DNA from: a virus
Lineage: Duplodnaviria; Caudoviricetes
Reading direction: 5' to 3' (one strand)
Virus record (IMG/VR): IMGVR_UViG_3300028591_000143
Location: 33,589-97,588 of that record
DNA: 64,000 nt
The notes beneath the pieces were generated by a model. It was not told the origin of the DNA. It saw only the letters and a program-made list of their open reading frames with translations, and searched no databases. Positions 16,970 through 48,132 of the stretch are shown here, piece by piece (position 1 is the first letter of the stretch; each line of letters starts with the position of its first letter). The position numbers and the translations under genes were made by a program.

Positions 16970-17016
16970 TAGGTCCGTAGTTGTAATCGAATACCACGCC
17001 TTAAAGCGCTACGGAC
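16970..17016 (-). ncRNA. Putative tRNA-like three-way-junction element (type A)
   Basis: P1 UCCGUAG/CUACGGA, CGC/GCG hairpin, UGGUA-UUCGAU-UACA, then C-CUA. Confidence 0.6.
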
Positions 17017-31416: not shown

Positions 31417-31935
31417 TTAGTAACTATATCCTTCTCGTTGGGTCATATTTTGTCTCCAATCTGCTCTTTCTCTACGTAAAGCTTGACGTTGTGCATAACC
31501 GAGTCGTTTATTGTAGAAATTAACATCTTGCTTCTTTTCTCTATATTTTTTGAGTCCTTTACCTAAACCTATAGTAGTTCCAATAACGACTCCAGCTATT
31601 CCAGTATGTTTAATTCCTCTGAGTAGGGATCTTGTGAGGGCTGGATTAGCAACTCCAGATTTAACTGTAGATGTTATGGCTTTTCTGTTTCCAACTCCCT
31701 TTAATATCCCTCCAGTAACGGCTCCAGCACCAGCACCTATAACAGCTCCCTGAGCAGCAGAAGTTAAAGGACCACTAATTCCAGGACCACGCTTCTTTTC
31801 CTCAGCTAATATATCAGAATCTTTAGCTCTTTTTAGGTTATCTGTATCATCCCATCGTGTGAATTCTCTTTGGGCATACTCATAACCATCATAAAAAGCT
31901 TGATTTATTAGCTCTTCATATATTTTATCATTCAT
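31417..31935 (-). CDS. Long-leader glycine-zipper protein (paralogue of 47244)
   Basis: …AFYDGYEYAQREF|TRWDDTDNLKRAKDSDILAEEKK; GAVIGAGAGAVTGG. Confidence 0.8.
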   Translation of the reverse strand: MNDKIYEELINQAFYDGYEYAQREFTRWDDTDNLKRAKDSDILAEEKKRGPGISGPLTSAAQGAVIGAGAGAVTGGILKGVGNRKAITSTVKSGVANPALTRSLLRGIKHTGIAGVVIGTTIGLGKGLKKYREKKQDVNFYNKRLGYAQRQALRRERADWRQNMTQREGYSY

Positions 31936-31947
31936 GTTTTACTAGTT

Positions 31948-33120
31948 TTATTGTTGCACTGGTTGATTTTGGGACTTTTCGTAGGCAAATGCTTTCTTAT
32001 CTACAGCTTCGAGGGGTTTTCTTACAGCTTTATCTCCCCACTCAAATGGTTTCCATTTAGCAGAGGCCAAACCAATTCCAGCCAAAATTCCGACAGGACC
32101 TGTTTTTCGTACAAACTTAGCGGCTTTATTCATCCAAACACCACGTCCTGGTTTTGTCATTTGATCAGCTAATTTCCCTCTACTTGTTTTTCCCATATAA
32201 AATCCCCAGTTTTCATACCAGGGAGTTTTTTCAGCGGGAGTTGCATACTGTCTTTCCTCAGACTGTGATTGTTTTATCTGATCTTTAAGCTGTTGTCTTT
32301 GGGATAGATAACCAACAGCAGGGAAAGCAGCGCCTAATCCAACAGCCAAAGCAGCTTTTCCAGGAGATCCAGCGGCATCCTTAAATGCTTCCTTACCCAT
32401 AGTCTTAGCTTTACCCCAGGCAGAATTCATAGTAGCTCTGTTAAGTTTTCCTTTTCTAGCTAACATAAGAGTTCCTGCGGTAGCTCCTAATGTTCCAGCA
32501 CCTATCAAAACTCCATTCTTTATCTTCTTGCCTAAACTTTTCTTTTCTTTCTCCGGGGTATCTACTGGCGCTCCAAGTTTCTTACGGTCAGCCTGTATTA
32601 TTTTATCTGTCAAATACCCAGTTCCAGCCATAATAGCACCAGAGGCCATCATATTAGCCATTTTCTGACCTGATCCACGTTCTTTTCCAATATCTACGAG
32701 ATCACGTCCAAAGTCTCTGGCATTATTTACGGTCTTGGATTTCTTTAACTGGGCTACAACATTATCCATCGTCTTACTTTTAGCGACTTTTCTAATACCT
32801 TTAGCGACGGGAGAGAAAACAGAATAGGTTTTTGTTTTTCTTTTTAGTGTTATTGAATAGGTGGTTTGTTGTGGTTGCATTGGGGTAGGAGTAGTAATAT
32901 TTACTGGATTTCCACTTTTAAGAGCTTTCTCTACGTTTCTATTATTAGCAGCAATTTGACGGCTAATATCTCTACTTGCTTGATCTGCCAGCATTTGTTG
33001 TTGCTTAAACTGTTTTGGCATATCAATTGCTCCTTTTACCATAGATACATTAGAGGCTGTAGCTAGTGCTTTCCCTGCAAAACCAAGTATTGAAAATACT
33101 TTCTCTCTAAACTGTATCAT
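31948..33120 (-). CDS. Leader-bearing multi-segment Gly/Ala-rich basic protein
   Basis: MIQFREKVF|S; internal ITLKRKTKTY|S and ERQY|A. Confidence 0.75.
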   Translation of the reverse strand: MIQFREKVFSILGFAGKALATASNVSMVKGAIDMPKQFKQQQMLADQASRDISRQIAANNRNVEKALKSGNPVNITTPTPMQPQQTTYSITLKRKTKTYSVFSPVAKGIRKVAKSKTMDNVVAQLKKSKTVNNARDFGRDLVDIGKERGSGQKMANMMASGAIMAGTGYLTDKIIQADRKKLGAPVDTPEKEKKSLGKKIKNGVLIGAGTLGATAGTLMLARKGKLNRATMNSAWGKAKTMGKEAFKDAAGSPGKAALAVGLGAAFPAVGYLSQRQQLKDQIKQSQSEERQYATPAEKTPWYENWGFYMGKTSRGKLADQMTKPGRGVWMNKAAKFVRKTGPVGILAGIGLASAKWKPFEWGDKAVRKPLEAVDKKAFAYEKSQNQPVQQ

Positions 33121-33122
33121 AT

Positions 33123-33431
33123 CTAAACACTCCTATCTTGTAAACTTTGGCCTGCGTTCTTAAGTCCTCTACCTATACCTCCAGTGATATTCTTACCGGC
33201 GACATAACCAGCACCAAGTCCTACGGCACCAGCCAGAAGTCCACCGCCTAGTCCATATTTAATAGCACTCCCAAGAACTTTCGCCCCAGCTAATCCTCCT
33301 GCAAATCTTCCTATATTAGAGTCTAGAACACTACCTGTCCCCTTCATAACTCCTCCGGCGGTATTTCCAAGAACATTACCAGCTGCCTCAAGAGCACCAA
33401 ATGTTTTTCTTTTTAATCTGTATCTTGCCAT
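33123..33431 (-). CDS. Leader-bearing glycine-zipper protein
   Basis: MARYRLKRKTF|G; GLGGGLLAGAVGLGAG. Confidence 0.75.
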   Translation of the reverse strand: MARYRLKRKTFGALEAAGNVLGNTAGGVMKGTGSVLDSNIGRFAGGLAGAKVLGSAIKYGLGGGLLAGAVGLGAGYVAGKNITGGIGRGLKNAGQSLQDRSV

Positions 33432-33622
33432 TTTCCTAATCTCCCATCGTTTAATTCTGTTCTTAGTTTTCTCATCTCTTTATTTAAATCAGTTCCAGCC
33501 ATTTGTCTTTGGGTATCTAATCTTCCTAGTCTATCAAAATCCTGATCATATTTTCTCCCACGCCTAAATCCTGAAACTCCTGTAGTATTAAGAGTCTTTG
33601 AAAACTTACGTAATATAATCAT
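33413..33622 (-). CDS. Small leader-bearing protein
   Basis: MIILRKF|S; overlaps both neighbours. Confidence 0.65.
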   Translation of the reverse strand: MIILRKFSKTLNTTGVSGFRRGRKYDQDFDRLGRLDTQRQMAGTDLNKEMRKLRTELNDGRLGKWQDTD

Positions 33623-34185
33623 AATTCTAAGAGATATATTTGATATTTTAATCCAAATGGTAGGATATTTATAGCTCTAATGGCATCTTGTATACTACTA
33701 AATTCAAGAACTAAGGAACGACTAGCTTTATCATATTTTAAAGCCTCTCCTAGTAATTCTCTTACAGGAATGGATAGATCAAATGGAAGGTCACTATTAA
33801 AAGATGCTCCATTATTATTACCATCATTTTTCTTTTTCTTGCTATTAGGACTAAACAATCTTTCTTCTTCAGAGAATAGCTTGTTTTTGAAACTAATCTT
33901 GATATTTAGTAGTCGTTTATCGTATACATGTTCGGGGAGTCTAACCTCGTCTGGCATTTTAGCTTTCGCTCCCACCTTAATATACATTCTATATTTATCT
34001 CTATGTCCAAATGCGGTAGAGATAACAAATCTTTCTATTACAACACTATTACCCTTTAGTATAGGTAATAATTGTGACGAGTTTATGATTTTAAATTTAT
34101 TCCGATCAGAGTATTTCATAAGCTCGACATAAAGACTTCTCATAGCATCGTACTCAGAGAATAGTTTTTGTCTAAATTCTATCAT
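33619..34185 (-). CDS. Leader-bearing protein
   Basis: MIEFRQKLF|S; internal NKLF|SEEERLF|S. Confidence 0.75.
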   Translation of the reverse strand: MIEFRQKLFSEYDAMRSLYVELMKYSDRNKFKIINSSQLLPILKGNSVVIERFVISTAFGHRDKYRMYIKVGAKAKMPDEVRLPEHVYDKRLLNIKISFKNKLFSEEERLFSPNSKKKKNDGNNNGASFNSDLPFDLSIPVRELLGEALKYDKASRSLVLEFSSIQDAIRAINILPFGLKYQIYLLEL

Positions 34186-34186
34186 A

Positions 34187-34555
34187 TTATCTTACTATTG
34201 AGAGATTATATTTTACTCCTAGGATTTCTATAATATCTAAAACTATACCTTTCTCTGGTCTTTCTGCAGTTATGACTCTTGTTTTAGTATCTATGTCTGT
34301 AATCCTCATCTGGAATATATCTCGAATTAATTTTTGTGTGTACTTATATAATTCTTTATCCTGAAGCTTTATCTCATATTGACCATCACCATTTCTTATG
34401 AATGATCTGAGTACCATGGCCTTTGAGTTAACTCTTGAAACTTGATCCGCTTGGTCTTCTGAGATAGTATTAAATCGAACACCTTGCTTCTTAAGATATT
34501 CAACTGCTTCCGGCATAAGATCTTGAATAAGTGTTTTCTTTCTAAATGAAACCAT
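34187..34555 (-). CDS. Hypothetical virion protein (degenerate leader)
   Basis: MVSFRKKTL start; 122 aa. Confidence 0.7.
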   Translation of the reverse strand: MVSFRKKTLIQDLMPEAVEYLKKQGVRFNTISEDQADQVSRVNSKAMVLRSFIRNGDGQYEIKLQDKELYKYTQKLIRDIFQMRITDIDTKTRVITAERPEKGIVLDIIEILGVKYNLSIVR

Positions 34556-34567
34556 ATTATGCGGATT

Positions 34568-35668
34568 CTAGTTTATTTTAATTTCTTCGATCTTATTATC
34601 AGATTCGAACAATTCTGCTTGTATTTCCTCTAAGAATTTATATCGGCCATCCAAAACTTCATAAAAATAAAGCTCACATCTAAATTGGCATTGATATGAA
34701 AAATTAGAGTTGTCGTCTTGCTGATATATATGATTAAAGTCCTCTGTTATTTGTCCCCATTTTACTGCCGCTGTCCATCTTTCTCCATATTTATCTGTAG
34801 TTTTAAATTCACAGAAATTAGTCAGGATATCTAAGTTATTGTATTTATTTTTAAAATCAAAAAACATAACCATATCTGGAGTTCGTAAAGTAAATTCTAT
34901 GGGAACTCTATGGGACATTAAATGATCAGTCTCATCGGTACGCTTAGGATGACTATATTTGGATGGAGTCTGATTAAACATGTAAACTATATAAGAGGTT
35001 TTTTTCAATGTTTCTTCTTTATTCCATCGGACAAGCTCAATTCCATAGTCATTCAATATTCTCCTAAGCTCTAATATAAATTGATTTTGGTAGTCTATAG
35101 CTCGTATAATATAATCATCATATCTTCTCCGTAATACATAAACAGTATCAGAATCAGATTCGAGCTCTATACTTTTACTACCTATAGATATTTTTGGGAA
35201 ATTCTTAACCGTCCAACACTTAGGTCTAGGTCCGACAGGCTTAAGATATAAAAGATTCCCAGAGTAAAAAAGAAAGTTAATGAATTCTTGATTATCAACA
35301 TCCTCTTGTGAGACTACTATTGTTGTATGATTGTAATCTTGAACTACTCTAGACTCACAATCCCCTACTATTATCAAATTTATTATGTGGGGAGAAGAGG
35401 TAAGTTTTCGTAGTTTTAATCCATTAAGAGATACATAAACATCTGAAAACCTAATTGCTTTATTCGTTGGTTCTAGTACTTGTGAAGATCCTATTTTATC
35501 TATCCCAAGGAACCCAGCAACCGAGTCAGATGTACTTCCTGGAGTATAAGTCAAAGTAATAGTAGAGGTGTTTTTATCTTCAACCAGAGAAATGGTATTT
35601 CCCTCTACTACCTTATAATACCTACACCCAGAATTAATTTTTATTCCTTGGTAGATAAGTTCATTCAT
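34568..35668 (-). CDS. Putative tail-completion/terminator-like protein
   Basis: 366 aa; VPIEFTLRT and YQCQFRCELYFY pattern; position. Confidence 0.45.
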   Translation of the reverse strand: MNELIYQGIKINSGCRYYKVVEGNTISLVEDKNTSTITLTYTPGSTSDSVAGFLGIDKIGSSQVLEPTNKAIRFSDVYVSLNGLKLRKLTSSPHIINLIIVGDCESRVVQDYNHTTIVVSQEDVDNQEFINFLFYSGNLLYLKPVGPRPKCWTVKNFPKISIGSKSIELESDSDTVYVLRRRYDDYIIRAIDYQNQFILELRRILNDYGIELVRWNKEETLKKTSYIVYMFNQTPSKYSHPKRTDETDHLMSHRVPIEFTLRTPDMVMFFDFKNKYNNLDILTNFCEFKTTDKYGERWTAAVKWGQITEDFNHIYQQDDNSNFSYQCQFRCELYFYEVLDGRYKFLEEIQAELFESDNKIEEIKIN

Positions 35669-35680
35669 TTATTCATTTTT

Positions 35681-36100
35681 TTACTGTTGCTGTTCCTTCT
35701 TCTTTGCAAAGGTTTTTCTTTTCAATGTATAAGTAGTAGCCATGTCATTCTTTTTTACTTGAGAAAACATTTTACTTCCATCACTTTGTTCTGAAGCTTT
35801 ACTTACAACACCCTTAGCAGCAAGCCCAGTACCAACAGCAAGAGTTCCAGCAAGAGCAAGGGGTTTTCCTACTCCCTTGACTACGTTTCCGAACGCACTT
35901 CCCACAGATTTATTGGTGGCAGGATTTATGTTTACGGTTTTTTGTGTAGCTAAATCAAAGGCCTGATTCGTTTTACCTGTTGCAATATGTCCTAAATTAC
36001 TCCAGTTATTAGCTCCGATGATTCTTCCAAGCGTAGAACCAGCAAATCCTCCTCCAACTCCAAACAGTTTTCTCTTTAATGTGAAAGTTGTTTTACTCAT
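35681..36100 (-). CDS. Leader-bearing Gly/Ala-rich protein
   Basis: MSKTTFTLKRKLF|G; second leader-like MATTYTLKRKTF|A at C-terminus. Confidence 0.75.
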   Translation of the reverse strand: MSKTTFTLKRKLFGVGGGFAGSTLGRIIGANNWSNLGHIATGKTNQAFDLATQKTVNINPATNKSVGSAFGNVVKGVGKPLALAGTLAVGTGLAAKGVVSKASEQSDGSKMFSQVKKNDMATTYTLKRKTFAKKKEQQQ

Positions 36101-36122
36101 AATTTTTATGTAGATTAATAAT

Positions 36123-36162
36123 AAAAACCCCCTATCACAGGTTTAATTGCAATAGGGGGTCT
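36123..36162 (-). terminator. Rho-independent terminator after major capsid
   Basis: ACCCCCTAT…ATAGGGGGT followed by TTTTATT on minus strand. Confidence 0.75.
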
Positions 36163-36182
36163 TATTGTTATGATTAGAGAGA

Positions 36183-37703
36183 TTAGAGTCCAACGGTGAA
36201 CTCAACTTTCTGAACGAGCTCTGGAGCAAGATACTTAGTACCTTCCTGATAATAAATACCAGAAGCCATTTGAGTCGGATTATTATAGTTACCAATAGTT
36301 GGGGTGTCGGTTAGAGGCATATAAATACCACGAGCAAGAGGAGCCATCTGACCATCAGCGGTCTTATGGATAGCATAGAAAACACCCTTCTGATATTTTT
36401 TATTGTCTTCAGTAGTTTCTATAGGCTCAACAATATCATCACTACGAAGAACGGGAATACCATCATACCAACCAAGTAGATCGGAGATATAGGTCATCTT
36501 CTCATTTCTCTTAAATTTACCGATAATTCCACCTTTCTGGAACTGTGAGGCAGCTTGAGTGCCAGCAACATAAGCAGTAGTGGTAACACCCTTGACAGCT
36601 CTCTTAGCAAGAGCAGTTTCAACGTTAATCAGATAAGCGTCGAATAGGTCGACTCTTGAACGATAGTCAGTAAAGGTAACATTATTAGCAGCACCAGTAG
36701 ATGTGGTATCGAAACCGATTCCTCTAGCTGAGAGGTCTAAGTCATCCATTGTGTTGCCATTATAACCCTCAACAAGAGTAGAAACGAGCTTATAGTTAAT
36801 CATCTTGGTGTAAAGCTCACGAAGTTTGGTGAACAGGAATGAAGCCATGTCAGCACCAGTAGCTTTCTTCATGGCACCAAGAGCAGCAATATTATATTCA
36901 GCGACTAGCATATCAGGAACAGTCGAGAGACCAAGCTGCTGCATTTTAGCTAGGAAGCGCTTGTCATTGGCGTGGGCATTAGTTGAGCCAGTGGTATTGC
37001 AAGGAGTACCAGTGACATCCTCTTTACCGACAATTGTGATAGAAGCTTTTGCATGAGAAGTAGCGTTATCAGCTGGGACACTGGCTAGAGTAAAATCAAC
37101 TTTACCATTCAGATAGTTAAGACTACCAGCGACCATAACACCGGCTTTGGCCATGAAGTTACCCTGACCGTCATCAACGAGCTCATAATTACCTTTACCA
37201 CCAGCAACGGGGTCAACAACTTTCACGCGAATAGTACCAGGGATAAGCTTACGACCAACAAGAGTACTATAATTAGTGCCATTAACGGTAACCTCTAGCT
37301 GGAAATTACCCATGCTATTAATATCCTTGTAGTTATCAGGACCCAGGTTAGGAATAACATTTCTCATGTCGGAGACACCAAGAACATCAAACCAGTAGAA
37401 AAGACCATTGGGTTGATCAAAGTCACGCTCGATAGACATAAAGCCAGCAAAAGAGCTAACATAAGAAGCAACTGAAGCATTAAAATACTGAGTGCTCAGA
37501 AGAGGAGTCTCGGCATAACCAGAGAAAGTCTTCTGTAATAGATTAGCACCATTAGTACCAAAAATATCAGCCTTCATTTCATCATTTCTCGAGAACATCT
37601 TAGCATATTCACGAGCACGAATTCTAGCGTCATCAAGAGACACTGAGCTATTTTTCAGAGCGGTCATCATCTCATCGCTCTGCATGTGTTCTAAATAATT
37701 CAT
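36183..37703 (-). CDS. Major capsid protein (HK97 fold, T4 gp23-like)
   Basis: 506 aa; DQPNGLFYWFD and IYMPL…NPTQMASGIYY motifs; follows protease and scaffold; strong terminator. Confidence 0.85.
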   Translation of the reverse strand: MNYLEHMQSDEMMTALKNSSVSLDDARIRAREYAKMFSRNDEMKADIFGTNGANLLQKTFSGYAETPLLSTQYFNASVASYVSSFAGFMSIERDFDQPNGLFYWFDVLGVSDMRNVIPNLGPDNYKDINSMGNFQLEVTVNGTNYSTLVGRKLIPGTIRVKVVDPVAGGKGNYELVDDGQGNFMAKAGVMVAGSLNYLNGKVDFTLASVPADNATSHAKASITIVGKEDVTGTPCNTTGSTNAHANDKRFLAKMQQLGLSTVPDMLVAEYNIAALGAMKKATGADMASFLFTKLRELYTKMINYKLVSTLVEGYNGNTMDDLDLSARGIGFDTTSTGAANNVTFTDYRSRVDLFDAYLINVETALAKRAVKGVTTTAYVAGTQAASQFQKGGIIGKFKRNEKMTYISDLLGWYDGIPVLRSDDIVEPIETTEDNKKYQKGVFYAIHKTADGQMAPLARGIYMPLTDTPTIGNYNNPTQMASGIYYQEGTKYLAPELVQKVEFTVGL

Positions 37704-37727
37704 ATATTTCCTTCTTATTTTTTGGGT

Positions 37728-39953
37728 TTATTTTCCAATCTCCTGACCTAACCAAGAGACTAGTGTATCATTAGTGTTATTTATCGATTCTTCAACTTCA
37801 TTGGCACTAAACTGAGCCTCCTGAAGTTCTGCCTGTTCGTCTTCAGCCGGAGTATTCTTAGCCTCTATAATAGCATTTACAGAGGTATTCGTAGCATCAC
37901 TAATTGCCTGTACCGCAGCAAGGGCGGCATCTTCAATGGCCTCTACACTAGGAGCAGCCTCTTCTCCCTGCTGGAGGGGAACAAGGTTTCCATTTTCATC
38001 ATAGACGGCCGGGACAACCTCTGGCTCTGGGGCGGCAGCGGCATTAACCTCAGCGAAGAACTTATCTAAGGGATTAGCAGAGAACTTCTTCTCTTCATCT
38101 TCATCCCCTCCGATCAAATCAGCAGCAGTTTCCTCACTGATAGGAGCTAAGTCAATATCATCTTCGGACACAACGGCTTTAGTATATTCTCCGTTCTCTT
38201 TATCCTTGATGACAGCGGTTTCATTGTCGATGGGAGTAATAGTCTCACCCTCAGTCTCAACAACCTCACCTTCCTCAACGGCCTTCTCAATATCAGCCTC
38301 ATCAGCCTCCTCAGAGAATAAACGACACATATAGTCAGTCATATCCTCATTCTCACTGAAGAATTTAGTCTCCTCAGCATTTGAATAAGTCTTCTCTTCA
38401 GTCAGATCAGCAGCTTCTTCTTCGCTTATCGGTTTAAGGTCAATATCATCATCAGTCATTGTGGCCTTAGTATATTCACCGTTCTCTTTATCTTCAATAA
38501 CAGCAGTCTCATCATCAACCGGAGTAATAATTTCAGAATCAGTTTCAACTTGCTCATTATTTTCAATGGCTTTCTCAATATCAGCTTCATCGGCTTCCTC
38601 AGAGAAAAGTCTGCACATATAATCAGTCATATCCTCATTCTCACTGAAGAATTTAGTCTCTTCAGCATTTGAATAAGTCTTCTCTCCGGTTAATTCATCA
38701 GCCTCTTCCTCACTGATAGGATTGCAGTTCATACTATCACCATCAATAACAACCTTAGTTAATTCACCATTATCTTTATCCTCGACAATAGCAGTATAAT
38801 CGTCGACGGGAGTTATAATTTCAGTGTCAGTCTCAACCTCATCACCACCCTCGATAGCATTCTCAATGGCGGACTGAGATGCGTCGATATCATTACAAGC
38901 CTCACTAAAGAGACGAGTCATAAAAGCGGTGTTATCAATATTATATCTAGTTACAAAGACATCATGCTCAGAGAATTCGACCTGTTCGGGCTCTTCAATC
39001 TCCTCAGTGTCTTCAACTCCAACACTTTCGAGGAGAGAAATAGCATAATCTCTAGCTTCGGTTTCATCTTCAAAAACCTGAACACCATCAATACCAATCT
39101 CCTGAAGTCTATCCACAAGTTCTTGAGCACTTTCTTCGCTATACTCAGAAGCATCGACTATCTGGTGATTAAACGCATCTATTCCAACAACATGAAGGGG
39201 CATAAATTCCTCTTCATTAGCGGTCTCTTCACCTTCCTCGCTAAAATTCTTTGAGTCTAATTCCTGAACATCCATTTCTTCATCATCCATTGTAACCTTG
39301 GCTTGATCACCACTATTCTCGTCAGTCACAATAACAGTATTGGGTTCTTCTGTTTTCTCGATTTTTAAGTCTCCAACCTTTGCAGTTTCTTGACTTTCAA
39401 TGACTTCAGAAAATAGACGCTCACAATAAGCCTGATCACTGAATATTCTCAGAACCACAGTATTATCGGTAGAAACACTGAATTCTTTCTCTTCCTCATC
39501 CTCTTCAGATCCGCACTCACAAGGATTTTGTCCACACTCTGGGCAAACATCACCCTCTGCGTTCTCTTCAACAGTAGGAGCAGGAGTTTCATCAGGATTA
39601 TGATCTTCAACTTTCTCATCAGGAGCTCCAACTTGATCACCAGGAGTCACTCCATCATCTTCCATGTGCAGATAATTCTCCGGTTGGTCTGTAGGGATTT
39701 CGACACCCGCAGGATACAGATCATAATTACCATCTTCAGCTTTCTCAGCAATAGTCCGCTCACCGTTTTCATTATCGGTGATTTCAACCTTGCCTTCACC
39801 TAAGTCAACATAAGTTAACTCATCCGTGGTAACTGAACCTTTTTGTTTTGCTTCTTCAATATCTCTAGCAACCTGTGAAGTTAATTCCTCATCACCTTCA
39901 GCAGTAGCACTAAAGATTCTAGTCATAAATCTTGTATTTTCTGGATTTTTCAT
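37728..39953 (-). CDS. Acidic scaffold/prohead core protein with 96-aa repeats
   Basis: Very Glu/Asp-rich; immediately upstream of MCP; at least 12 [KR]x[FY]S motifs. Confidence 0.75.
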   Translation of the reverse strand: MKNPENTRFMTRIFSATAEGDEELTSQVARDIEEAKQKGSVTTDELTYVDLGEGKVEITDNENGERTIAEKAEDGNYDLYPAGVEIPTDQPENYLHMEDDGVTPGDQVGAPDEKVEDHNPDETPAPTVEENAEGDVCPECGQNPCECGSEEDEEEKEFSVSTDNTVVLRIFSDQAYCERLFSEVIESQETAKVGDLKIEKTEEPNTVIVTDENSGDQAKVTMDDEEMDVQELDSKNFSEEGEETANEEEFMPLHVVGIDAFNHQIVDASEYSEESAQELVDRLQEIGIDGVQVFEDETEARDYAISLLESVGVEDTEEIEEPEQVEFSEHDVFVTRYNIDNTAFMTRLFSEACNDIDASQSAIENAIEGGDEVETDTEIITPVDDYTAIVEDKDNGELTKVVIDGDSMNCNPISEEEADELTGEKTYSNAEETKFFSENEDMTDYMCRLFSEEADEADIEKAIENNEQVETDSEIITPVDDETAVIEDKENGEYTKATMTDDDIDLKPISEEEAADLTEEKTYSNAEETKFFSENEDMTDYMCRLFSEEADEADIEKAVEEGEVVETEGETITPIDNETAVIKDKENGEYTKAVVSEDDIDLAPISEETAADLIGGDEDEEKKFSANPLDKFFAEVNAAAAPEPEVVPAVYDENGNLVPLQQGEEAAPSVEAIEDAALAAVQAISDATNTSVNAIIEAKNTPAEDEQAELQEAQFSANEVEESINNTNDTLVSWLGQEIGK
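38110..38920 (-). repeat. ~288-bp tandem repeat (about 3 units) in scaffold gene
   Basis: ATCCTCATTCTCACTGAAGAATTTAGTC at 38343 and 38631. Confidence 0.9.
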
Positions 39954-39971
39954 ACTAATTATTCTATCTAT

Positions 39972-40739
39972 TTATTTTATTTCTATATTATTATCCTTTT
40001 CTCCGATTATACCAAGAGATTTTAATTTCTCTATAATATTCTCGGGAGCATCTGGATAACGCTCTTCTATAATACCTTCAAATTCTGGCTTTGACATCGT
40101 AGTGCCTCCAAATTCGGCCCCAAGATCACCAAGAATACCAGAATCTTCCAGCCATCCCTCACGATCACCTTCTTTTTTTACTCCATGAACTTTTTTAAGA
40201 ATGGCAATACACTTAGGGGTCATGTTTAGATTATCAATAAATCCACCAAAATTACCATGACTCTGCATAACTTCGGGGACTAATTCATACTCTTTGGTTA
40301 CTGAAACAACTAACTTTGAAAATAAACGTGATTCTAAGAAAGCTGTACTGGAAATTTTAATCCCGCCATCTTCAGTAGCTTTTGAAAATCCACGCTCTTC
40401 TAGATCAGCTCTTTCTATTTCACTAAAGTTTTTCTCGTATAGATCCTTACTAATCTCTCTACCGGAGAATTCCTTTAGTTTTAATTCAAGGGGATCAGAA
40501 GTTGTAGAAAACTCCTTCTGAAAATCCTCTTCAAAAATTGAGCGTCTTTGTCTAGTTTGAACATCGGCTCCACAAACTTTACAATAACCCATGTCCAACT
40601 CTTCCTGGCTCAATTCATGTCCACAGTCACTACATAGGACTCGAGAAACTTCAACCTTAGGTTCCTCGCTACTAAATAATTTGCGTCTTGGGGTAGTAGG
40701 AGGAACATCACTAAATAATTTACGTCTTTCTTTCTTCAT
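39972..40739 (-). CDS. Prohead core-like protein with Zn ribbon
   Basis: RRKLF|S twice, CSDC…CKVC, further KEF|S motifs; lies between protease and scaffold. Confidence 0.65.
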   Translation of the reverse strand: MKKERRKLFSDVPPTTPRRKLFSSEEPKVEVSRVLCSDCGHELSQEELDMGYCKVCGADVQTRQRRSIFEEDFQKEFSTTSDPLELKLKEFSGREISKDLYEKNFSEIERADLEERGFSKATEDGGIKISSTAFLESRLFSKLVVSVTKEYELVPEVMQSHGNFGGFIDNLNMTPKCIAILKKVHGVKKEGDREGWLEDSGILGDLGAEFGGTTMSKPEFEGIIEERYPDAPENIIEKLKSLGIIGEKDNNIEIK

Positions 40740-40740
40740 A

Positions 40741-42036
40741 TTACTTTTCCTCCTTTAATTCTTCCTCTTCACTGGGAATATTATCTACATTCTTAAATAT
40801 CTCGTCAAGAACAGCTTCAATAAATTTATTATATGCTGTGGACAACTTTTGATATCTCATTTTAGATATAAATCCTTGTTTTCTTGATTCTATTCCAGCC
40901 ATTCTATAGGCCATTTGAAGATCTTGACAAGCGATTCGTAATGATTTTGAAATTGAACTAGCACCTAATAGAGTATTAATTTGCTTGTTCTTAGAAATAA
41001 CATCATCCGAAATACGATTAAGAATGTATAGAACTTCTGAAGAAACCATTGATTTAAGAATTGTTTCATCTTCAGGTTTTAAATTAGGACCCATGCTTTT
41101 TAATACTTGTTTGTAGCTTATTATCATTCTACGAAACTGGAGACGCACACCAAGTTTCCTCTCTCTAAGCTGATCTCTAATTCCAGCCACAGAAAATTCC
41201 TTCTGCTCAGGCTGTTCTTTTTTCTCTTCTTCAGTAAATTCTTTCTCTACCAGACTACTCTCATCCTCTTCTGCTTTAATGTCGCTATAAAATGAAAATT
41301 CCTTTATCTTAAGCTTAGTAAACTGACCATCAATCTTTGAAGATTTTGGTAGATCAGATATATCAACACCAGCTTCTGTGGGATTCGAAAAAGTTTTTAC
41401 TTTTATATTAATTTCGTCTGCTGTAGTTGAGAAAGTTCTGTCTTTAAATTCAGCTTTCTCTTTATCATCATATATAATTTCAGTAATATGAGATTCAGGA
41501 CCAAAACTCGGAGAAAGAGTCCAATCTAATCCCTTAATAAGTTTTATTTTCTTGGCTACGTCGGCTCCGCCATTATTTCTATCAGAACCACTCCACCAAG
41601 CCACCACAACGAGACTATTTGCTAAGAATACACCGGATTTTAATAATCCCCGCAATCTTTTTATATTCTCAGCAGCTCTAGAATCAAAATCTTCGGGATC
41701 TAAAATGTGTACTTCTGCACTTAGGAAATTCCCTCGTTCAGTCTCTTCTATATAAAATTTCTTTACATAGTGGGTTGGAGTCGAAATTCCGTCGGCTACA
41801 AGAAGTAATTGATCTGAATCCCCAATCTTCTTTTTTATTATAGATGCATCACCTGCAGATTCAGGCATACCATCTACTCCCCTACTTTTGTGTGTTAAAC
41901 AACCTAGGGTTGATCTTGTAGCTATTGATCTTTTATAATCTTCGCTCTCAAGATACTCCCTTACAGCAAGTTCGGGGATTATTGAATTATCTGCTGCACG
42001 CTGACCTAAAGGGCAACATCTAACTTTTACATCCAT
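40741..42036 (-). CDS. Prohead maturation protease (gp21/HK97-like)
   Basis: LGCLTH, PTHYV, ANSLVV, IKGLDWTLSPSF motifs; followed by a linker with five [KR]xF[ST] sites. Confidence 0.75.
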   Translation of the reverse strand: MDVKVRCCPLGQRAADNSIIPELAVREYLESEDYKRSIATRSTLGCLTHKSRGVDGMPESAGDASIIKKKIGDSDQLLLVADGISTPTHYVKKFYIEETERGNFLSAEVHILDPEDFDSRAAENIKRLRGLLKSGVFLANSLVVVAWWSGSDRNNGGADVAKKIKLIKGLDWTLSPSFGPESHITEIIYDDKEKAEFKDRTFSTTADEINIKVKTFSNPTEAGVDISDLPKSSKIDGQFTKLKIKEFSFYSDIKAEEDESSLVEKEFTEEEKKEQPEQKEFSVAGIRDQLRERKLGVRLQFRRMIISYKQVLKSMGPNLKPEDETILKSMVSSEVLYILNRISDDVISKNKQINTLLGASSISKSLRIACQDLQMAYRMAGIESRKQGFISKMRYQKLSTAYNKFIEAVLDEIFKNVDNIPSEEEELKEEK

Positions 42037-42109
42037 TCTATATTTTGTTTTAAGGTTAATCTCGAGGACACTTTTAATCCTCTAACTCTTCTATTACGTA
42101 CTATTATTA

Positions 42110-43714
42110 TTATTTATTATCTTCCACAACATACAATGCATCATAGTCGATCAGCATGTGTGGGTCAATTCCTTCTATAATTGTTTTTGTGAGAAAATTT
42201 GAGATATTAGAATACTCATTAAATATGTATGGAATTTCTACTAAGTAGATTAAGTTATTCTTACAATAATCCCTTAATTCAATATCTCTCTGTAGTTGGG
42301 CCTTAAAGTCATCCTTTGTTTTATGAAATACACTAACATATTTATAGTGCTGAACACCATTATATTCAATAATAATGTTCTTAGTAGTATTGGAAATATC
42401 TTTTAAGTAAAAATCAACTCTTATTTTACCACCACTCCTTCCAAATGTATTATCCAACCAAATCTCTCTTTCAAACTGAATACCTTGTTCCTTAAGAAAG
42501 GTATAAACCATCCTCTCTCCAGAGGACATCGACCTATTTGGATTCCCGGCCCCACATAAATGGCTATCAGGGGTTTGAAAGAAAAACTCGTCAAAAATCG
42601 GATCATATATTTCTATAGGGGTTTTTGCATTTACATAATTGACTCTGTAATATAAGTATGTTCCTTCCCCATGCACTTCATTTGCGCGGTGAACAAACTC
42701 TTCTGTGGTTAATTTAATACTTCCTCCACATCTAGGACAACCAACTCCACTAAGATGATGGCCAGCTCGTTGAAGAAATTCTCCATGAATTGGGCAAATT
42801 ATTATCACATCTTTCATACGATTAATATAATTTACCTTACTATAATCATATTTATCTCCATGGATCTCTCTTGCACGTTCAATAAACTGTTCAGTTGTTA
42901 ATCTAACTTTTCCAGCACAAAGTAAACAACCGTGTCCAGATAAGTGTTGAGATGGTGTTTGAAGAAATTCTCCATGAATTGGGCAGATTATTTTCACATG
43001 AGTATTTGCATTAATATAATTTACCTTACTATAATCATATTTATCTCCATGGATCTCTCTTGCACGTTCAATAAACTGTTCAGTTGTTAATCTAATATTA
43101 TTAGCACACAATGGACAACCACTTCCGGATAGATGTTGAGATGGTGTTTGAAGAAATTCTCCATGGATAGGACAGATTATTATGATTTTAGTATTATTAT
43201 TGACATAATTTACTTTACTATAATCATACTGATCTCCATGAATTTTTCTAGCCTCAACAATAAATTGCTCCGTCGTATGTGTTCTATGCTTACTATATAA
43301 CTCCTGACCACATTTCTGACATCTTCCTCTAGTTAAAAAATTAGAAGGATTTATCTCAAAGTCACCATGTCCTTCCACTAAGCAAGTTATGATTACTTTT
43401 TCATGAGCATTTTTATACTCAGTCTTGCTATAATCAAACCTATCACCAAACTTCCTCAAACCTCTCCTTATAAACTCTTTCGTCTTCTCATCTTTCTCAC
43501 TGTATTTCTCGTTTATAATTTGATTTATTTCTTCCTCACTTAAATTTTCTTTATACTCTTCACACTTACATTCTTCACAACAACAATTTTCTTCATGTGT
43601 AGCTTTTAATAATCTTTCTGTCAACAAACTCATAATTTTATTCTTTTTATATTTATTCTTAAACTCATTTTTAAAAAGGGAAGGATGTTTTTTAAGTTGC
43701 GCAATATTATACAC
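42110..43714 (-). CDS. Free-standing homing-endonuclease-like protein (63-aa Zn repeats + Vsr/DUF559-like nuclease); true start probably MSLLTER
   Basis: TTEQFI..AR.IHGD.YDYSKVNY…ICPIHGEF.Q….HL.G.GC repeats; SSGE…RVDFYL…IIEYNGVQHY. Confidence 0.85.
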   Translation of the reverse strand: MYNIAQLKKHPSLFKNEFKNKYKKNKIMSLLTERLLKATHEENCCCEECKCEEYKENLSEEEINQIINEKYSEKDEKTKEFIRRGLRKFGDRFDYSKTEYKNAHEKVIITCLVEGHGDFEINPSNFLTRGRCQKCGQELYSKHRTHTTEQFIVEARKIHGDQYDYSKVNYVNNNTKIIIICPIHGEFLQTPSQHLSGSGCPLCANNIRLTTEQFIERAREIHGDKYDYSKVNYINANTHVKIICPIHGEFLQTPSQHLSGHGCLLCAGKVRLTTEQFIERAREIHGDKYDYSKVNYINRMKDVIIICPIHGEFLQRAGHHLSGVGCPRCGGSIKLTTEEFVHRANEVHGEGTYLYYRVNYVNAKTPIEIYDPIFDEFFFQTPDSHLCGAGNPNRSMSSGERMVYTFLKEQGIQFEREIWLDNTFGRSGGKIRVDFYLKDISNTTKNIIIEYNGVQHYKYVSVFHKTKDDFKAQLQRDIELRDYCKNNLIYLVEIPYIFNEYSNISNFLTKTIIEGIDPHMLIDYDALYVVEDNK

Positions 43715-43742
43715 CCTCCCCCGAATTAATTATGAGTTTAAT

Positions 43743-43790
43743 TAGATCCGCAGTGTAATCGAATACTACAACTATTTCATTGCTGCGGAT
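43743..43790 (-). ncRNA. Putative tRNA-like three-way-junction element (type A)
   Basis: P1 UCCGCAG/CUGCGGA, CAAU/GUUG hairpin, UAGUA-UUCGAU-UACA, U-CUA. Confidence 0.6.
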
Positions 43791-43796
43791 TATATT

Positions 43797-44261
43797 TTAT
43801 CTTAACAATCCACTATAATATTCAGGGAAGTCAGTTTTTATTATTTCTGTTATTAATTCTTTTCTACTCAACCTACCAAAACCCCCTATTATAATTTCTT
43901 GGTTATTGTAGGTTATTTTGTATTTTTTCTTCAACCAGCCTAAACACTCAATCTTTACTACCTTATCTAAACCTTCATATAATACTTCTTCTATTTCTTT
44001 AAGGGTTGTTCTAGGGAGGGTAAAATCATTCTCCATAATACACCCTTCTCCTATAAAAACTGGGACATAATCTAGTTCTATTTCTCCTCGTATAGTCCAA
44101 GTATCGTCAAGGTTATATTTTTTGAGGTTTAAGAATGAAGGAAGATAGGCTACAAGAGAGACTAAAAGACTGGAAGGAAAGTAAATACCAAACCTCTTAT
44201 ATTCAGGGATTTTCTTTTTTATCTTAAATGCTACTGTTTTCATTTCCCTACCAAAATTCAA
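43797..44261 (-). CDS. Hypothetical protein
   Basis: 154-aa ORF. Confidence 0.65.
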   Translation of the reverse strand: MNFGREMKTVAFKIKKKIPEYKRFGIYFPSSLLVSLVAYLPSFLNLKKYNLDDTWTIRGEIELDYVPVFIGEGCIMENDFTLPRTTLKEIEEVLYEGLDKVVKIECLGWLKKKYKITYNNQEIIIGGFGRLSRKELITEIIKTDFPEYYSGLLR

Positions 44262-44586
44262 AGGTTATATAGTCTTTTAAAATTCGACCTATAATCCGTT
44301 CCTTTTCTTCGGCTTCTAATTTAAAGTCCCCAGTAAGTAAATAAGTATCTGGTAATATGACGGCCTTATAATTTTTTGGTAATTCTTCAGGTATTTTCCA
44401 GTCCCCATCTCTTAAAATATCAAAACTTTTCTCTGCCTTTTCTATGGAGCTGGGAATAAATACTGCTACCTTTGATTTATAGGCTGGACAAAAATCAGAA
44501 GCAAAAGGACGAGAAAATCTAGTTAATGAAGATATTGGTTTTCGTCTTATATCCTCTACTACCAAATAACCAAAATAAATCTTCAT
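44248..44586 (-). CDS. Hypothetical protein
   Basis: 112-aa ORF. Confidence 0.65.
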   Translation of the reverse strand: MKIYFGYLVVEDIRRKPISSLTRFSRPFASDFCPAYKSKVAVFIPSSIEKAEKSFDILRDGDWKIPEELPKNYKAVILPDTYLLTGDFKLEAEEKERIIGRILKDYITFEFW

Positions 44587-44603
44587 AGCCTTTGTTTTTT
44601 AAT

Positions 44604-44650
44604 TAGATCCGCAGTGTAATCGAATACTACCTCCCAAAAAGGCTGCGGAT
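44604..44650 (-). ncRNA. Putative tRNA-like three-way-junction element (type A)
   Basis: Same P1 and T-loop arm as 43743 with a different P2 (CCUUU/GGAGG). Confidence 0.6.
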
Positions 44651-44823
44651 TACAAAATAATATTAAAAGATATGAATTAATTGAATGAAGTTCCCTAAGA
44701 TGCCGAGGTTGTTAAATATATTAGTGATTGGTTGGGTGTAATATAACTGAAACTCTGTATTAATCTTTACCCACGACATCCTAACTTTATCTATATATTA
44801 TTTTGTGGATGTGGTTTTTACTG

Positions 44824-44878
44824 TTGAACTTGGGGTGTAATCGAATACTACAACCTTTTATTTCTGTTGCCCCAAGTT
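44824..44878 (-). ncRNA. Putative tRNA-like three-way-junction element (type A)
   Basis: P1 ACUUGGGG/CCCCAAGU, CAAC/GUUG, UAGUA-UUCGAU-UACA, U-CAA. Confidence 0.6.
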
Positions 44879-44911
44879 AGTTATTAGAAAGGAGATTTTT
44901 TTTATATTAGT

Positions 44912-45346
44912 TTAAAATATTCCAACCTTCTTTGCATTCTTTAGATATTCATAGTGACTTTTTAAATCACCATGTCTATCCTTTTTTATCTGTTTTAGTT
45001 GGAGAGGGTCGGTTTTTGCTCCAACAACTTCTCTTCTAAATACACTTTTACCTACATTTGGTCTACTTTCAAAAGCCTTAGTAAAACCACTTGGCATCAT
45101 TGAATTAATACCCTTTGGATTTCCTACCTTCGTGAAAAATTGTTTGGCTTGATTTGGATTAACATAAGCAAATTCTCTCTGGGCATATTCGTATCCTTCA
45201 CAAAATGCACGTTCCAAGAGTTCATCCAAGTCTTCATTTCCTGTACTATAAAGCTTCTCATCATAGTACTCATCATAATCACTGTACAATTTAGTTATTT
45301 TCATTATCTCTTTACTTTCACATACAGGGATTATTGTTATTTTCAC
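44912..45346 (-). CDS. Long-leader protein (start probably MKITKLYS at 45304)
   Basis: EKLY|STGNEDLDELLERAFCEGYEYAQREF|A. Confidence 0.75.
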   Translation of the reverse strand: MKITIIPVCESKEIMKITKLYSDYDEYYDEKLYSTGNEDLDELLERAFCEGYEYAQREFAYVNPNQAKQFFTKVGNPKGINSMMPSGFTKAFESRPNVGKSVFRREVVGAKTDPLQLKQIKKDRHGDLKSHYEYLKNAKKVGIF

Positions 45347-45403
45347 CTATTACCCCCCCCCCTGTATGCTATTTTTAACAAAGGGAGAGATAATATATAT
45401 ATC

Positions 45404-45934
45404 TTAATAAGCGATAGTTATTACATAAGAATCAATCCACTTAAACGCGTCTTGTAGTGAATCTGTTTCATATTTTATTTCAAAGTTTTTCTTCCCAAAG
45501 AGTCTATTTACTCCTCTACTAATTAATGCAAGGGGAGCAGTTTCGTGAGTTACTTTAAATACTCTATCAGTAGAATTAACAAACCAACTTATAGTAAAAT
45601 ACTCAGATCCTCCAGTGATTGCAATAACTGCTCTTTCTTCTTCGGCGTGTCTTATTGATGTAGGCTCTTTGCCTGTTCTAAGTTGTTTTAGTATATTTTC
45701 TTTTCCACATAGATTAACACTAGTTCCCCTTTGGGTATCATAACTAGTGTAAATTTTATCTTTTACACTAAACTTATTACATATCGTAAAATATCGTAAT
45801 AAATCCTCTGGTAGCTCTATTTCGTAATTTCCTTTATCTGGTCTTGTTGTATTTAAATTTTTACATAACCAATCTGCCAGATCCTTGTTGTGTCTGGAAA
45901 ATAAACCAAACTCTTTTTGCCTTAATATTCTCAT
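45404..45934 (-). CDS. Leader-bearing protein
   Basis: MRILRQKEF|G. Confidence 0.75.
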   Translation of the reverse strand: MRILRQKEFGLFSRHNKDLADWLCKNLNTTRPDKGNYEIELPEDLLRYFTICNKFSVKDKIYTSYDTQRGTSVNLCGKENILKQLRTGKEPTSIRHAEEERAVIAITGGSEYFTISWFVNSTDRVFKVTHETAPLALISRGVNRLFGKKNFEIKYETDSLQDAFKWIDSYVITIAY

Positions 45935-45956
45935 ACTCTTCTCTTCTCTTTTGTTT

Positions 45957-46005
45957 TAGATCTAGGAATCCACATTAAAGGGTAGACTTAAAGTCATTCC
46001 TAGAT
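45957..46005 (-). ncRNA. Putative tRNA-like three-way-junction element (type B)
   Basis: P1 UCUAGGAAU/AUUCCUAGA, GAC/GUC hairpin, UACCC-UUUAAU-GUGG, U-CUA. Confidence 0.55.
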
Positions 46006-46015
46006 ATTACTTTAT

Positions 46016-46633
46016 TTAGTGTTTGATACGTCTAGTTGCATATTTCTTGGCATACTCTTCCTCAGACATTTCGCCTTTTGCAACCTTAGTAGTATCTCTA
46101 TCTTTCTCTATCTCTTGATCATGTAAACCACTGGGATATTTCTCAGCCTTATCACTTCTCTTTTTATATAGGTGATGATTCAGGGCAGTTAAACCAGCTC
46201 CAACTGCGGCTCCACCAGCGGCACCAATAGCAGCACCTTTTCCAGTTTTGCCAAGTGAAGATCCAGCAAGAGCACCAACACCAGCACCAACAGCGGTCTC
46301 GGCCGGAACAAGAACCTTAGCAACTCTTTTAGTATTCTCTTTATTAGCCTTTTTTCTAACCTCAGGATCCTCAGAGCTCATATCTTCTACATTCTTATAT
46401 TTCTCCGGGTTCTTTCTATAAGACTTTCTCTGAGCTAGAATAGTATCTCTATCATATTTACTAATACCAAGCTCTTTCATCTTTCTATTGGACTCTCTAC
46501 GCTCTTTTCTTTCATCCTTACCAAACTCTCTCTGAGCATATTCATAACCATCACAAAAAGCTCTTTCAAGAAGTTCGTCGAGCTCATCATTACCAGTGCT
46601 ATATAATCTAGTACTTAGTCTTTCGATTTTCAT
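46016..46633 (-). CDS. Long-leader glycine-zipper protein
   Basis: RLY|STGNDELDELLERAFCDGYEYAQREF|G; VGAGVGALAG…GAAIGAAGGAAVGAG. Confidence 0.8.
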   Translation of the reverse strand: MKIERLSTRLYSTGNDELDELLERAFCDGYEYAQREFGKDERKERRESNRKMKELGISKYDRDTILAQRKSYRKNPEKYKNVEDMSSEDPEVRKKANKENTKRVAKVLVPAETAVGAGVGALAGSSLGKTGKGAAIGAAGGAAVGAGLTALNHHLYKKRSDKAEKYPSGLHDQEIEKDRDTTKVAKGEMSEEEYAKKYATRRIKH

Positions 46634-47220
46634 AACTTTCTACGGATAACTTTCTTTGCACCCTGTTTAATAACTTTTGCACCAGCAGCAAAGTCCTCTT
46701 TTGCTTTCTCAGTCATTCCCTTAATACCCTTGGCAGCTTCTCTTCTTGCCTCTTTTGTTAAAGGAATACCTTCATCAACGAGTTTCTTTCCTTTTTCCAT
46801 TGTCTTTTCGTACTCGGATTTCTTGGCGTAAGAATTATTAATTTTATAACGCTTTCCACTCTTATTACTAGTTTCAACTTTAGTGGAATTGATAAGTTTC
46901 TTGCCCTCTTCTTTTAAGTTCTGACCTTTCTTATCGATAGCATTTTCACCAAGTTTAGCAACACCGGCGAGAGTACCGGCACCAACAACAGCAGTACCTC
47001 CTACACCTGCGGCAACCTTAGCCCCAGTATGTTTCTTCTTCTTAGGTTCTTCAGCTTCTTCCTCTTCAGCAAATTCTCTCTGTGCATATTCATAACCCTC
47101 ACAGAAAGCACGCTCTAGGAGTTCATCTAGTTCGTCATTACCAGTACTATAGAGTCTCTCCTCCTCTTCCTGGACATTCTCGCTGTAAAATCTTTCAGCA
47201 AATTCTCTTCCGTTAATCAT
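46630..47220 (-). CDS. Long-leader Gly/Ala-rich basic protein
   Basis: RLY|STGNDELDELLERAFCEGYEYAQREF|A; VAAGVGGTAVVGAGTLAG. Confidence 0.8.
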   Translation of the reverse strand: MINGREFAERFYSENVQEEEERLYSTGNDELDELLERAFCEGYEYAQREFAEEEEAEEPKKKKHTGAKVAAGVGGTAVVGAGTLAGVAKLGENAIDKKGQNLKEEGKKLINSTKVETSNKSGKRYKINNSYAKKSEYEKTMEKGKKLVDEGIPLTKEARREAAKGIKGMTEKAKEDFAAGAKVIKQGAKKVIRRKL

Positions 47221-47243
47221 AATTCTCTTATTGTTTATTTTTT

Positions 47244-47696
47244 TTAGGAAGTATATTCTTCTCTCCCGTTAGTCATATTATTAGCCCAATCTTTCTTTTC
47301 ACGTCTTAGGGCCTGTTTCTTTGCATATCGTAGACGTTTATTATAGTGGTTTACTTCTTCAACCTCTTTCTGACGTTTATTAGTAGCACCTAGAGCAAGA
47401 GTACCAGCACCGATAGCAGCAGCAATAGCAACATTTTTTTTACCACCGCGTTTCACAAGTTTCTCGGCAATTCTTTTGGCTTCTCCTTTTCCTTTTTTTC
47501 TTATGATCTTACTGGCTATGTGTCCAGCAGCACCAGCACCAGCTCCTGCAATTGCTCCCGCACCAGCAGCACTCACAATCTTTCCGACTCCCGGTTTTTT
47601 CTTTTCTTCTTCAGCCAGGATATCCGAGTCTTTAGCTCTTTTTAGGTTGTCAGTATCATCCCACTTTGTAAAATTCTTAGTTCTTAGGATTAACAT
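47244..47696 (-). CDS. Short-leader glycine-zipper protein (paralogue of 31417)
   Basis: MLILRTKNF|TKWDDTDNLKRAKDSDILAEE. Confidence 0.8.
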   Translation of the reverse strand: MLILRTKNFTKWDDTDNLKRAKDSDILAEEEKKKPGVGKIVSAAGAGAIAGAGAGAAGHIASKIIRKKGKGEAKRIAEKLVKRGGKKNVAIAAAIGAGTLALGATNKRQKEVEEVNHYNKRLRYAKKQALRREKKDWANNMTNGREEYTS

Positions 47697-47808
47697 GATT
47701 TTAATGGGTTATACGTATTATTCTCGGAGTCTAATTCTTGTTTTGAATTTTCTACCCCTTCAGTAAATGTTTTTTCTTTAATATTTTCTTCGTCGTACAT
47801 AATAAAAG

Positions 47809-48132
47809 CTATTTCGGCATAGCTACAGGATCTACACCTTTTGATCTAGTTTTATATAATCCAACGTTTTTAGGAGTGTCTTCAAGGTTCTGCATTTTTT
47901 GGGTCTGAATTCTTGTTTTATCTTCATGCATATCCTTTTGCATCTCCATTTTCTGTAGTTGTTGGATTTGTTTCATTCTAGCCTTTGCCGCATCTGCCTC
48001 TATTTTTTGTTTTGTTCGTTGGTTAATCATGATCTGTCTTTGCATTCTCATATTTTCCAACTGTATATCTCTAGGGGTTAATTGCTGCGGTTCTTCTACG
48101 GCTGCAAATCTTTTCTGTCGTATTATTTTCAT
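47809..48132 (-). CDS. Leader-bearing coiled-coil protein
   Basis: MKIIRQKRF|A; Gln/Met-rich. Confidence 0.7.
   Translation of the reverse strand: MKIIRQKRFAAVEEPQQLTPRDIQLENMRMQRQIMINQRTKQKIEADAAKARMKQIQQLQKMEMQKDMHEDKTRIQTQKMQNLEDTPKNVGLYKTRSKGVDPVAMPK

Follow-up and report, generated by a model that had tools for sequence, protein, structure and literature searches.

Interchangeable N-terminal leaders, predicted to be propeptides, on small basic head-module proteins of an uncultured giant gut phage

How separable is an N-terminal leader from the protein that it precedes? The question is raised by five small genes in a 64,000-nucleotide stretch of viral DNA (hereafter, the window) that corresponds to bases 33589-97588 of the 97.6-kb IMG/VR virus record IMGVR_UViG_3300028591_000143. 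The DNA comes from an uncultured giant phage of a sheep gut metagenome. The completeness of the record is 26% according to CheckV, and a relative with a complete genome of 400,901 bp with terminal repeats (G003) has a major capsid protein (MCP) that is 69% identical to that of the window. The head module of the window is located on the minus strand, where a portal-like gene is followed by a cluster of small genes, a gene for a 431-residue protein, two genes for acidic scaffold-like proteins, the MCP gene, further small genes and a gene for a sheath-like protein (Table 1). All five leader genes, which we name by their lowest coordinate (31417, 44912, 46016, 46630 and 47244), are present as open reading frames on the same strand. 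Here, we show that one family of small basic proteins (cargo) occurs behind several leaders and that one leader precedes many unrelated cargoes, and we propose that the leaders are propeptides.

Leaders and cargoes in the window and across the clade

The 31417 and 47244 genes encode paralogues of what we call the WDDTD family, whose mature parts are predicted to begin with T-[RK]-W-D-D-T-D... Their products are 45% identical (BLASTP, E = 2e-28) in an alignment that begins around the phenylalanine that ends both leaders, and the leaders, which comprise 25 and 9 residues, are unrelated to each other. The same boundary is displayed by the DNA: the first 30 codons past the junction are 70% identical, with proportions of synonymous (pS) and nonsynonymous (pN) differences of 0.80 and 0.047 in codons +1 to +22, whereas the 27 nt before the junction are just 18% identical. 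Neither leader can extend further because stop codons are found directly upstream of both starts.

The converse arrangement is found in 44912, 46016 and 46630. These genes have a 30-residue acidic leader, E-[RK]-L-Y-S-T-G-N..Q-R-E-F, that ends in ..GYEYAQREF and of which the 31417 leader is a shorter version without the ..LYS-TGN start. In the 97.6-kb contig, a hidden Markov model (HMM) of the long leader matched solely these four genes (E from 1e-23 to 2e-8), and a DNA repeat search recovered the three full copies as a 99-nt repeat with 71-80% identity. Past the phenylalanine, the amino acid identity of non-paralogous pairs drops to 3-13%, and a BLAST comparison of the cargoes linked the 31417-47244 pair only, all others having E > 0.08. 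Four of the five cargoes are nevertheless alike in composition, being strongly cationic with a Gly-rich uncharged stretch that is missing from 44912. The 46016 cargo has glycine-zipper Pfam matches, all of which are under the curated cut-offs. Both patterns had been put forward in a preliminary description of this DNA, namely a shared mature part behind two different leaders with the break at the phenylalanine, and a long leader heading three genes with unrelated cargo; both hold and go far beyond what chance would produce, the 45% identity being found from the residue after the phenylalanine onwards. A kinship of the long leader with repeats of the scaffold-like proteins (..FS-E-N-E-D..R-L-F-S) was also considered and dropped, as a sensitive leader HMM run matched four leader genes only.

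Table 1 Features of the head module and of the five leader genes (window coordinates)
Feature	Position	Strand	Details
Portal-like protein	48129..49847	-	heads the module; single motif site, at residue 13
WDDTD-family cargo paralogue 2, 150 aa	47244..47696	-	mature part 141 aa, net charge +16
Leader of the 47244 gene	nt 47670-47696, residues 1-9	-	class A short leader MLILRTKNF
Long-leader gene with class D pre-leader (MINGREFAERFYS..)	46630..47220	-	leader residues 1-50, nt 47071-47220; cargo 146 aa, net charge +15
Long-leader gene	46016..46633	-	leader residues 1-37, nt 46523-46633; cargo 168 aa, net charge +13
Long-leader gene	44912..45346	-	core leader nt 45170-45259; cargo 85 aa, net charge +11
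Candidate prohead serine protease, 431 aa	40741..42036	-	N-domain residues 1 to ~190; C-terminal domain ~275-431
Second scaffold-like protein	39972..40739	-	7 motif sites vs 0.62 expected
Acidic scaffold-like protein	37728..39953	-	15 motif sites vs 0.56 expected
Major capsid protein	36183..37703	-	motif sites solely at residues 33, 37 and 60
WDDTD-family cargo paralogue 1, 172 aa	31417..31935	-	mature part 147 aa, net charge +16
Leader of the 31417 gene	nt 31861-31935, residues 1-25	-	shortened long leader ending in ..GYEYAQREF
Sheath-like protein	27877..30345	-	

Outside the window, a search with residues 1-45 of the 46016 protein retrieved 94 metagenomic protein clusters (116-351 amino acids), which were anchored on the phenylalanine. 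Column entropy in this set stays at 0-1.2 bits throughout positions -30 to -1, steps up to 1.75 bits at +1, where the residue is A, G or S, and reaches 3-3.8 bits beyond that; upstream of -30 it climbs again. The last leader residue, which we call P1 by reference to a predicted cut, is F in 87 proteins and Y in 7. It is found at residue 43 in the median and at or before residue 60 in 93 proteins. With a median charge of -5, the 29-residue leader is anionic and, as a helix, amphipathic with a hydrophobic moment of 1.09. The cargoes have a median length of 131 residues and a median net charge of +14 (positive in 93 of the 94), display a Gly-rich uncharged stretch in 41 cases and fall into 33 single-linkage BLAST clusters (E < 1e-4). 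The region that precedes the leader is modular too, with A-like MKIERLYS.. and D-type M-x-x-G-x-E-F.. forms that are partly re-assorted relative to the cargo clusters. No long leader was found on proteins of 360-2000 residues, which is a weak indication that the cargo is always small.

Leader-bearing genes are always found within contigs of the same phage clade. Most of them adjoin portal or head genes, as in the window and in two related loci (L005 and L012), where they are located between the portal and protease genes, and some are found elsewhere. A related genome (G002) has two more copies near a P-loop (Walker A motif) gene, a putative large terminase, and two non-head regions of the clade (L009 and L011) hold long-leader genes as well. 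Leader homologues that occurred mostly in non-virion contexts would have spoken against the original proposal; instead, every context is a phage genome of the clade.

The WDDTD family was examined from the cargo side. Used as a query, the mature part of 31417 retrieved 311 matches; the best 120 were read, and 119 of them could be anchored at the junction. The leader ends in F (95) or Y (24) in all 119, P3 is K or R in 117, and conservation begins at +1 and continues through many invariant columns. Upstream of the junction, these proteins belong to leader class A (M-I-x-F-R-Q-K-x-F, about 23), class B (..L-K-R-K-x-F, about 85) or the long acidic class C (about 12); a further class, D, has the form M-I-x-G-x-E-F... 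Orthologues at the same genome position have the long leader in L001, L005 and L004, a class B leader in L007 and L008, and a class A leader in L006. In a tree of the mature parts, in which the two paralogues of the window belong to one 18-row group (SH-aLRT 86), leader class changes six times, compared to a minimum possible of 2 and a shuffled mean of 32.7. Leader class thus tracks the phylogeny of the mature protein and swaps are rare. Leader replacement is real and recurrent, but rare.

The predicted cut motif and a candidate prohead protease

Every leader class ends in [KR]-x-[FY] and is followed by a small residue. In 30 head-module proteins, the motif [RK]x[FY][SGTA] is seen 76 times compared to 21.4 expected from shuffles (3.6-fold), whereas the other 72 proteins contain 61 occurrences for 55.1 expected. 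The motif is found inside the first 16 residues of 17 of the 30 head-module proteins, but of only 4 of the 72 others. It is present in the N-terminus of the MCP, at residue 13 of the portal-like protein, in the scaffold-like proteins and in a linker of the 431-residue protein, a placement that would fit maturation cleavage. The MCP site, ..QKTF/SGYAETP (slashes mark predicted cuts), is kept in all seven relatives for which the MCP start was read (that of L002 was not).

The protein in question, encoded by 40741-42036, has 170 homologues at E <= 0.001 and consists of two separable domains. Residues H49, R52, D75 and S141 of its N-terminal domain are invariant across 61 homologues, with H49 and S141 constituting a putative catalytic pair. 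The AlphaFold 2 (AF2) model of this domain has a pLDDT (predicted local distance difference test) of 89.6, and its best match in the PDB as determined by Foldseek is T4 gp21 (5jbl, probability 1.00), followed by the proteases of Epstein-Barr virus, human cytomegalovirus and herpes simplex virus (assemblins). In BFVD, 166 viral models matched at E <= 1e-3, and most of the named ones among the top 50 are prohead proteases. All five [KR]x[FY] sites of the protein are located within residues 202-281, the linker that precedes the C-terminal domain. This parallels gp21 and the proteases of phiKZ and SPN3US, which auto-process their C-termini (PMC5694885). By the fold of its model, the protein is a candidate T4 gp21-like prohead serine protease.

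Profile searches gave no such matches. The protein has no Pfam or PHROG match, Peptidase_S77 and S78 match nothing in the contig at E <= 1, and an HMM profile of the protease alignment found nothing relevant among PDB sequences. When the N-domain of the protease was modelled together with the 46016 leader region, the complex scored 0.01, which was not used as evidence either way.

Propeptides, permanent helices or old paralogues

Considering (i) the enrichment of the motif in head-module proteins, (ii) its placement within them and (iii) the gp21-like fold of the protease model, we infer that the F or Y at the leader end is the cleavage point. The five genes are likely to encode precursors of packaged internal-head proteins, from which the phage protease would remove a propeptide analogous to the capsid-targeting sequence (CTS) of T4. 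We propose the following model. In a giant phage of myovirus-like type, the genes would specify precursors, and each precursor would consist of an N-terminal propeptide and a small, strongly cationic protein of the head interior that serves as cargo or is ejected. Inside the procapsid, the gp21-like protease would cut after F or Y, and the same enzyme would trim the N-terminus of the MCP, shred the scaffold proteins and free its own C-terminal domain. The long leader would be a 30-residue anionic amphipathic helix that is situated between two cut sites (..LY/S and ..EF/) and is excised by two cuts. It would act as the T4 CTS does, bringing the cargo into the assembling core, and for as long as it stays attached it may also shield the cationic cargo. 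With function residing in the leader and the cut site, as proposed, leader and cargo would evolve as separable modules.

Several observations weigh against this model. Firstly, the 94 long-leader proteins were picked by leader similarity, so that the conservation before the phenylalanine is partly by construction; the position where conservation collapses is not. Secondly, neither G003, the relative with a complete genome, nor G005 has the long leader, which is thus accessory rather than core to assembly. Thirdly, P1 is F or Y in the 119 WDDTD and 94 long-leader proteins, and not the Glu of gp21; an aromatic P1 is unprecedented for the gp21 fold because all characterised gp21/phiKZ-type proteases cut after Glu (PMC5694885). 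The aromatic specificity is a prediction from motif statistics. Fourthly, the AF2 model of 31417 has a helical leader, a Gly-rich middle of low confidence and a C-terminal helix that is predicted with confidence, and the leader helix runs unbroken across the junction, whereas a protease site is expected to be extended. Finally, leader class closely follows phylogeny, and recombination, although plausible, is untraceable because synonymous sites are saturated and no nucleotide breakpoints are left.

The continuous helix would agree with leaders that are never removed and serve as permanent N-terminal assembly or anchoring helices, attached for example to the inner wall of the capsid or to the portal, with [KR]x[FY] as a binding motif. 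Cleavage is here a prediction, and the scaffold protein of phage 80alpha offers a precedent, as it requires its N-terminal peptide although cleavage is dispensable (PMC5744158). Against this, the motif is found 15 times in a scaffold-like protein, five times in the protease linker and only in the first 60 residues of the MCP, which is the pattern of T4- and phiKZ-type maturation (PMC5694885), and a gp21-like protease is encoded in the module itself. We therefore regard permanent leaders as improbable.

If the leaders are removed, the enzyme might still be of host origin. Prp, which cuts ribosomal protein L27 as well as the capsid and scaffold proteins of 80alpha between F and A, strips short N-terminal leaders after Phe and recognises its motif on non-homologous phage proteins (PMC5744158). 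The class A leaders, with their nine residues and a terminal F that is followed by a small residue, resemble its substrates. In the phage described here, P1' is not restricted to Ala but is mostly S, T or G, P3 is K or R, and no Prp-family match (Peptidase_Prp) was found in the contig, which represents just 26% of the genome. Because the scaffold proteins contain many of the sites internally and an assemblin-fold protease is encoded by the phage itself, a Prp-type host enzyme is a very remote candidate compared to the phage protease.

The propeptide model leaves the origin of the mosaic to be explained. The long-leader copies of the window differ from each other with a pS of 0.76-0.92 and a pN of 0.04-0.14, which points to the peptide, rather than DNA or RNA, as the level of selection. 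By this comparison, purifying selection on the peptide is strong and the copies are old. The codons of class A short leaders vary little, but they are also the preferred AT-rich codons of the genome, so that constraints on peptide and RNA are not separable for this class.

The long-leader genes could be old paralogues in which the leader was held by purifying selection while a low-complexity cationic cargo diverged until no similarity was left, with no exchange of modules, and the short leaders of the WDDTD family could differ from each other through point mutations and small indels. The age implied by synonymous saturation agrees with such a history, as do the clustering of three of the four long-leader genes of the window (44912, 46016 and 46630) within ~2.3 kb, the cationic, Gly-rich composition that all window cargoes except 44912 share (44912 being without the Gly-rich stretch), the strong clustering of leader class on the tree and the short, basic and aromatic nature of both class A and class B. 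It is at odds with the 33 cargo clusters that have no similarity at E < 1e-4, and with the partial re-assortment of pre-leader class and cargo cluster around a conserved core. Furthermore, the WDDTD family has the 30-residue acidic module in one clade and basic leaders of 9-11 residues in others, and as the homology boundary is located exactly at +1, gain or loss of a whole module is required. Duplication and divergence is thus a possible origin of the long-leader families and does not explain the WDDTD family; as an account of the entire mosaic, we find it unlikely.

The sharp F/Y boundary, seen from the leader side and from the cargo side, supports the claim of the preliminary description that the leaders are portable modules. 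Recombination, which it had named as the route by which cargo is recruited, is not demonstrable given the saturation of synonymous sites. Its proposal that the leader defines the cleavage point agrees with the motif statistics and the gp21-like fold, which make such cleavage a reasonable prediction.

The propeptide model can be taken one step further, to a multi-class 'address code' by which this rumen phage clade loads its capsids, with interchangeable propeptides that are read by a gp21-fold protease that has switched to an aromatic P1. The classes would differ in the core compartment, copy number or loading time that they assign to their cargo, and the 30-residue anionic module, with its two cut sites, would act as a mobile cassette that turns any small cationic protein into packaged cargo. 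We put this forward as speculation and think it rather doubtful.

Neighbouring features, significance and comparison with known systems

Two more Gly-rich small proteins of the window, encoded by 33123-33431 and 35681-36100, have class B leaders (..RLKRKTF and ..TLKRKLF, respectively). The latter is possibly trimmed at both ends because a second copy of the motif, ..TLKRKTF, is present near its C-terminus. The start of 44912 is ambiguous, being either ATG at 45304 or GTG at 45346, the latter with ten consecutive G (45353-45362) ahead of it. Close relatives begin at the ATG (MKITKLYS..), and L003 and P0053 retain a similar upstream extension.

Between the protease gene and the leader cluster, 42110-43714 encodes a 534-residue protein in which a Cys/His unit (..IICPIHGEF..) is repeated four or five times in tandem. 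Its homologue in L012 carries DUF723 (PF05265), and other homologues adjoin the long-leader genes of the non-head loci L009 and L011. A mobile or nuclease-like nature of this gene is possible. The P-loop gene is interrupted in relatives: in G002 it is found as two pieces with a TAA between them (C1:53178-54958), and in L011 as separated fragments (12169-14362). This suggests introns or inteins, as are on record for other giant gut phages.

On the minus strand, copies of a 17-nt core, GTAGTATTCGATTACAC, are present at 43753-43769, 44614-44630, 44835-44851 and 16981-16997, three copies being identical and one having 2 mismatches, for 0.27 expected. The copies bracket the gene pair 43797-44586 and come after the 44912 stop. 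Those at 44614 and 44835 are within hairpins, the stems of which differ compensatorily (CTTGGGG/CCCCAAG vs ATCCGCAG/CTGCGGAT). Promoter, terminator and Rfam scans of 44400-48200 gave nothing above chance. Four contigs of a sheep-gut RNA-seq library are 100% identical to the leader cluster (44900-47484), which is compatible with its expression, although DNA carry-over could also account for them.

If the predicted cleavage is correct, the T4 principle of capsid targeting reaches a clade of uncultured ~400-kb gut phages that does not resemble model phages in sequence, and the gp21/assemblin fold is able to evolve a wholly different cut-site specificity. The clade would then provide a natural catalogue, with at least 33 cargo families and several leader classes, for asking what giant phages inject with their DNA, and the leaders would be candidates for tags with which foreign proteins are loaded into capsids. 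Mature N-termini can be predicted from the sharp +1 boundary and searched for in existing rumen metaproteomes.

Sequence comparison does not connect this phage to any known one: tblastn of the MCP and of the 46016 protein against 50,697 phage records gave no match, and Pfam and PHROGs scans of ten head-module proteins gave no meaningful match. A close analogy is to T4, where the internal proteins are directed to the core by CTS propeptides of 10-19 residues, which gp21 cleaves off; the CTS is identical in IPII and IPIII, two proteins that have diverged, and recruitment of new cargo has been proposed as one use of it (PMC9026906, PMC3012670). Like the CTS of IPI, IPII, IPIII and Alt, the leaders described here would be short N-terminal propeptides on small basic internal head proteins. 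In both systems a conserved leader is found on diverged or unrelated cargo, the leader ends in a cut motif that also occurs in the MCP and the scaffold, and the protease fold is the same. Unlike T4, the predicted cut is after Phe or Tyr with Lys or Arg at P3 and not after Glu. Where T4 has a single leader class, the clade described here has at least four, one of them a 30-residue anionic helix between two predicted cut sites. At least 33 cargo groups exist across the clade, and the window protease, unlike gp21, has no Pfam S77 match.

The phiKZ/SPN3US-type phages are likewise giant and have many processed head and ejection proteins with multiple cut sites in their propeptides (PMC5694885), which are predicted features of the phage described here. 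SPN3US gp53 and gp54, which have identical N-termini and are 34% identical as proteins (PMC5694885), resemble the leader genes in being paralogues with the same N-termini and diverged bodies. Their proteases, however, cut at A/S/G-x-Glu, their propeptides often exceed 100 residues, and an exchange of leader classes on one cargo is not described there. The leaders resemble the Prp/L27-type leaders of 80alpha in the Phe cut, which is predicted here, in being short and N-terminal, and in having a common motif on non-homologous phage proteins (PMC5744158). Prp, in contrast, is a host cysteine protease with an F/A site, an L27-like upstream motif and cleavage restricted to N-termini, whereas here the motif is also found at internal sites and the phage encodes a putative serine protease of its own. 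Compared to T4, what differs is the aromatic predicted P1, the existence of several leader classes, the composite long leader and the large repertoire of cargo.

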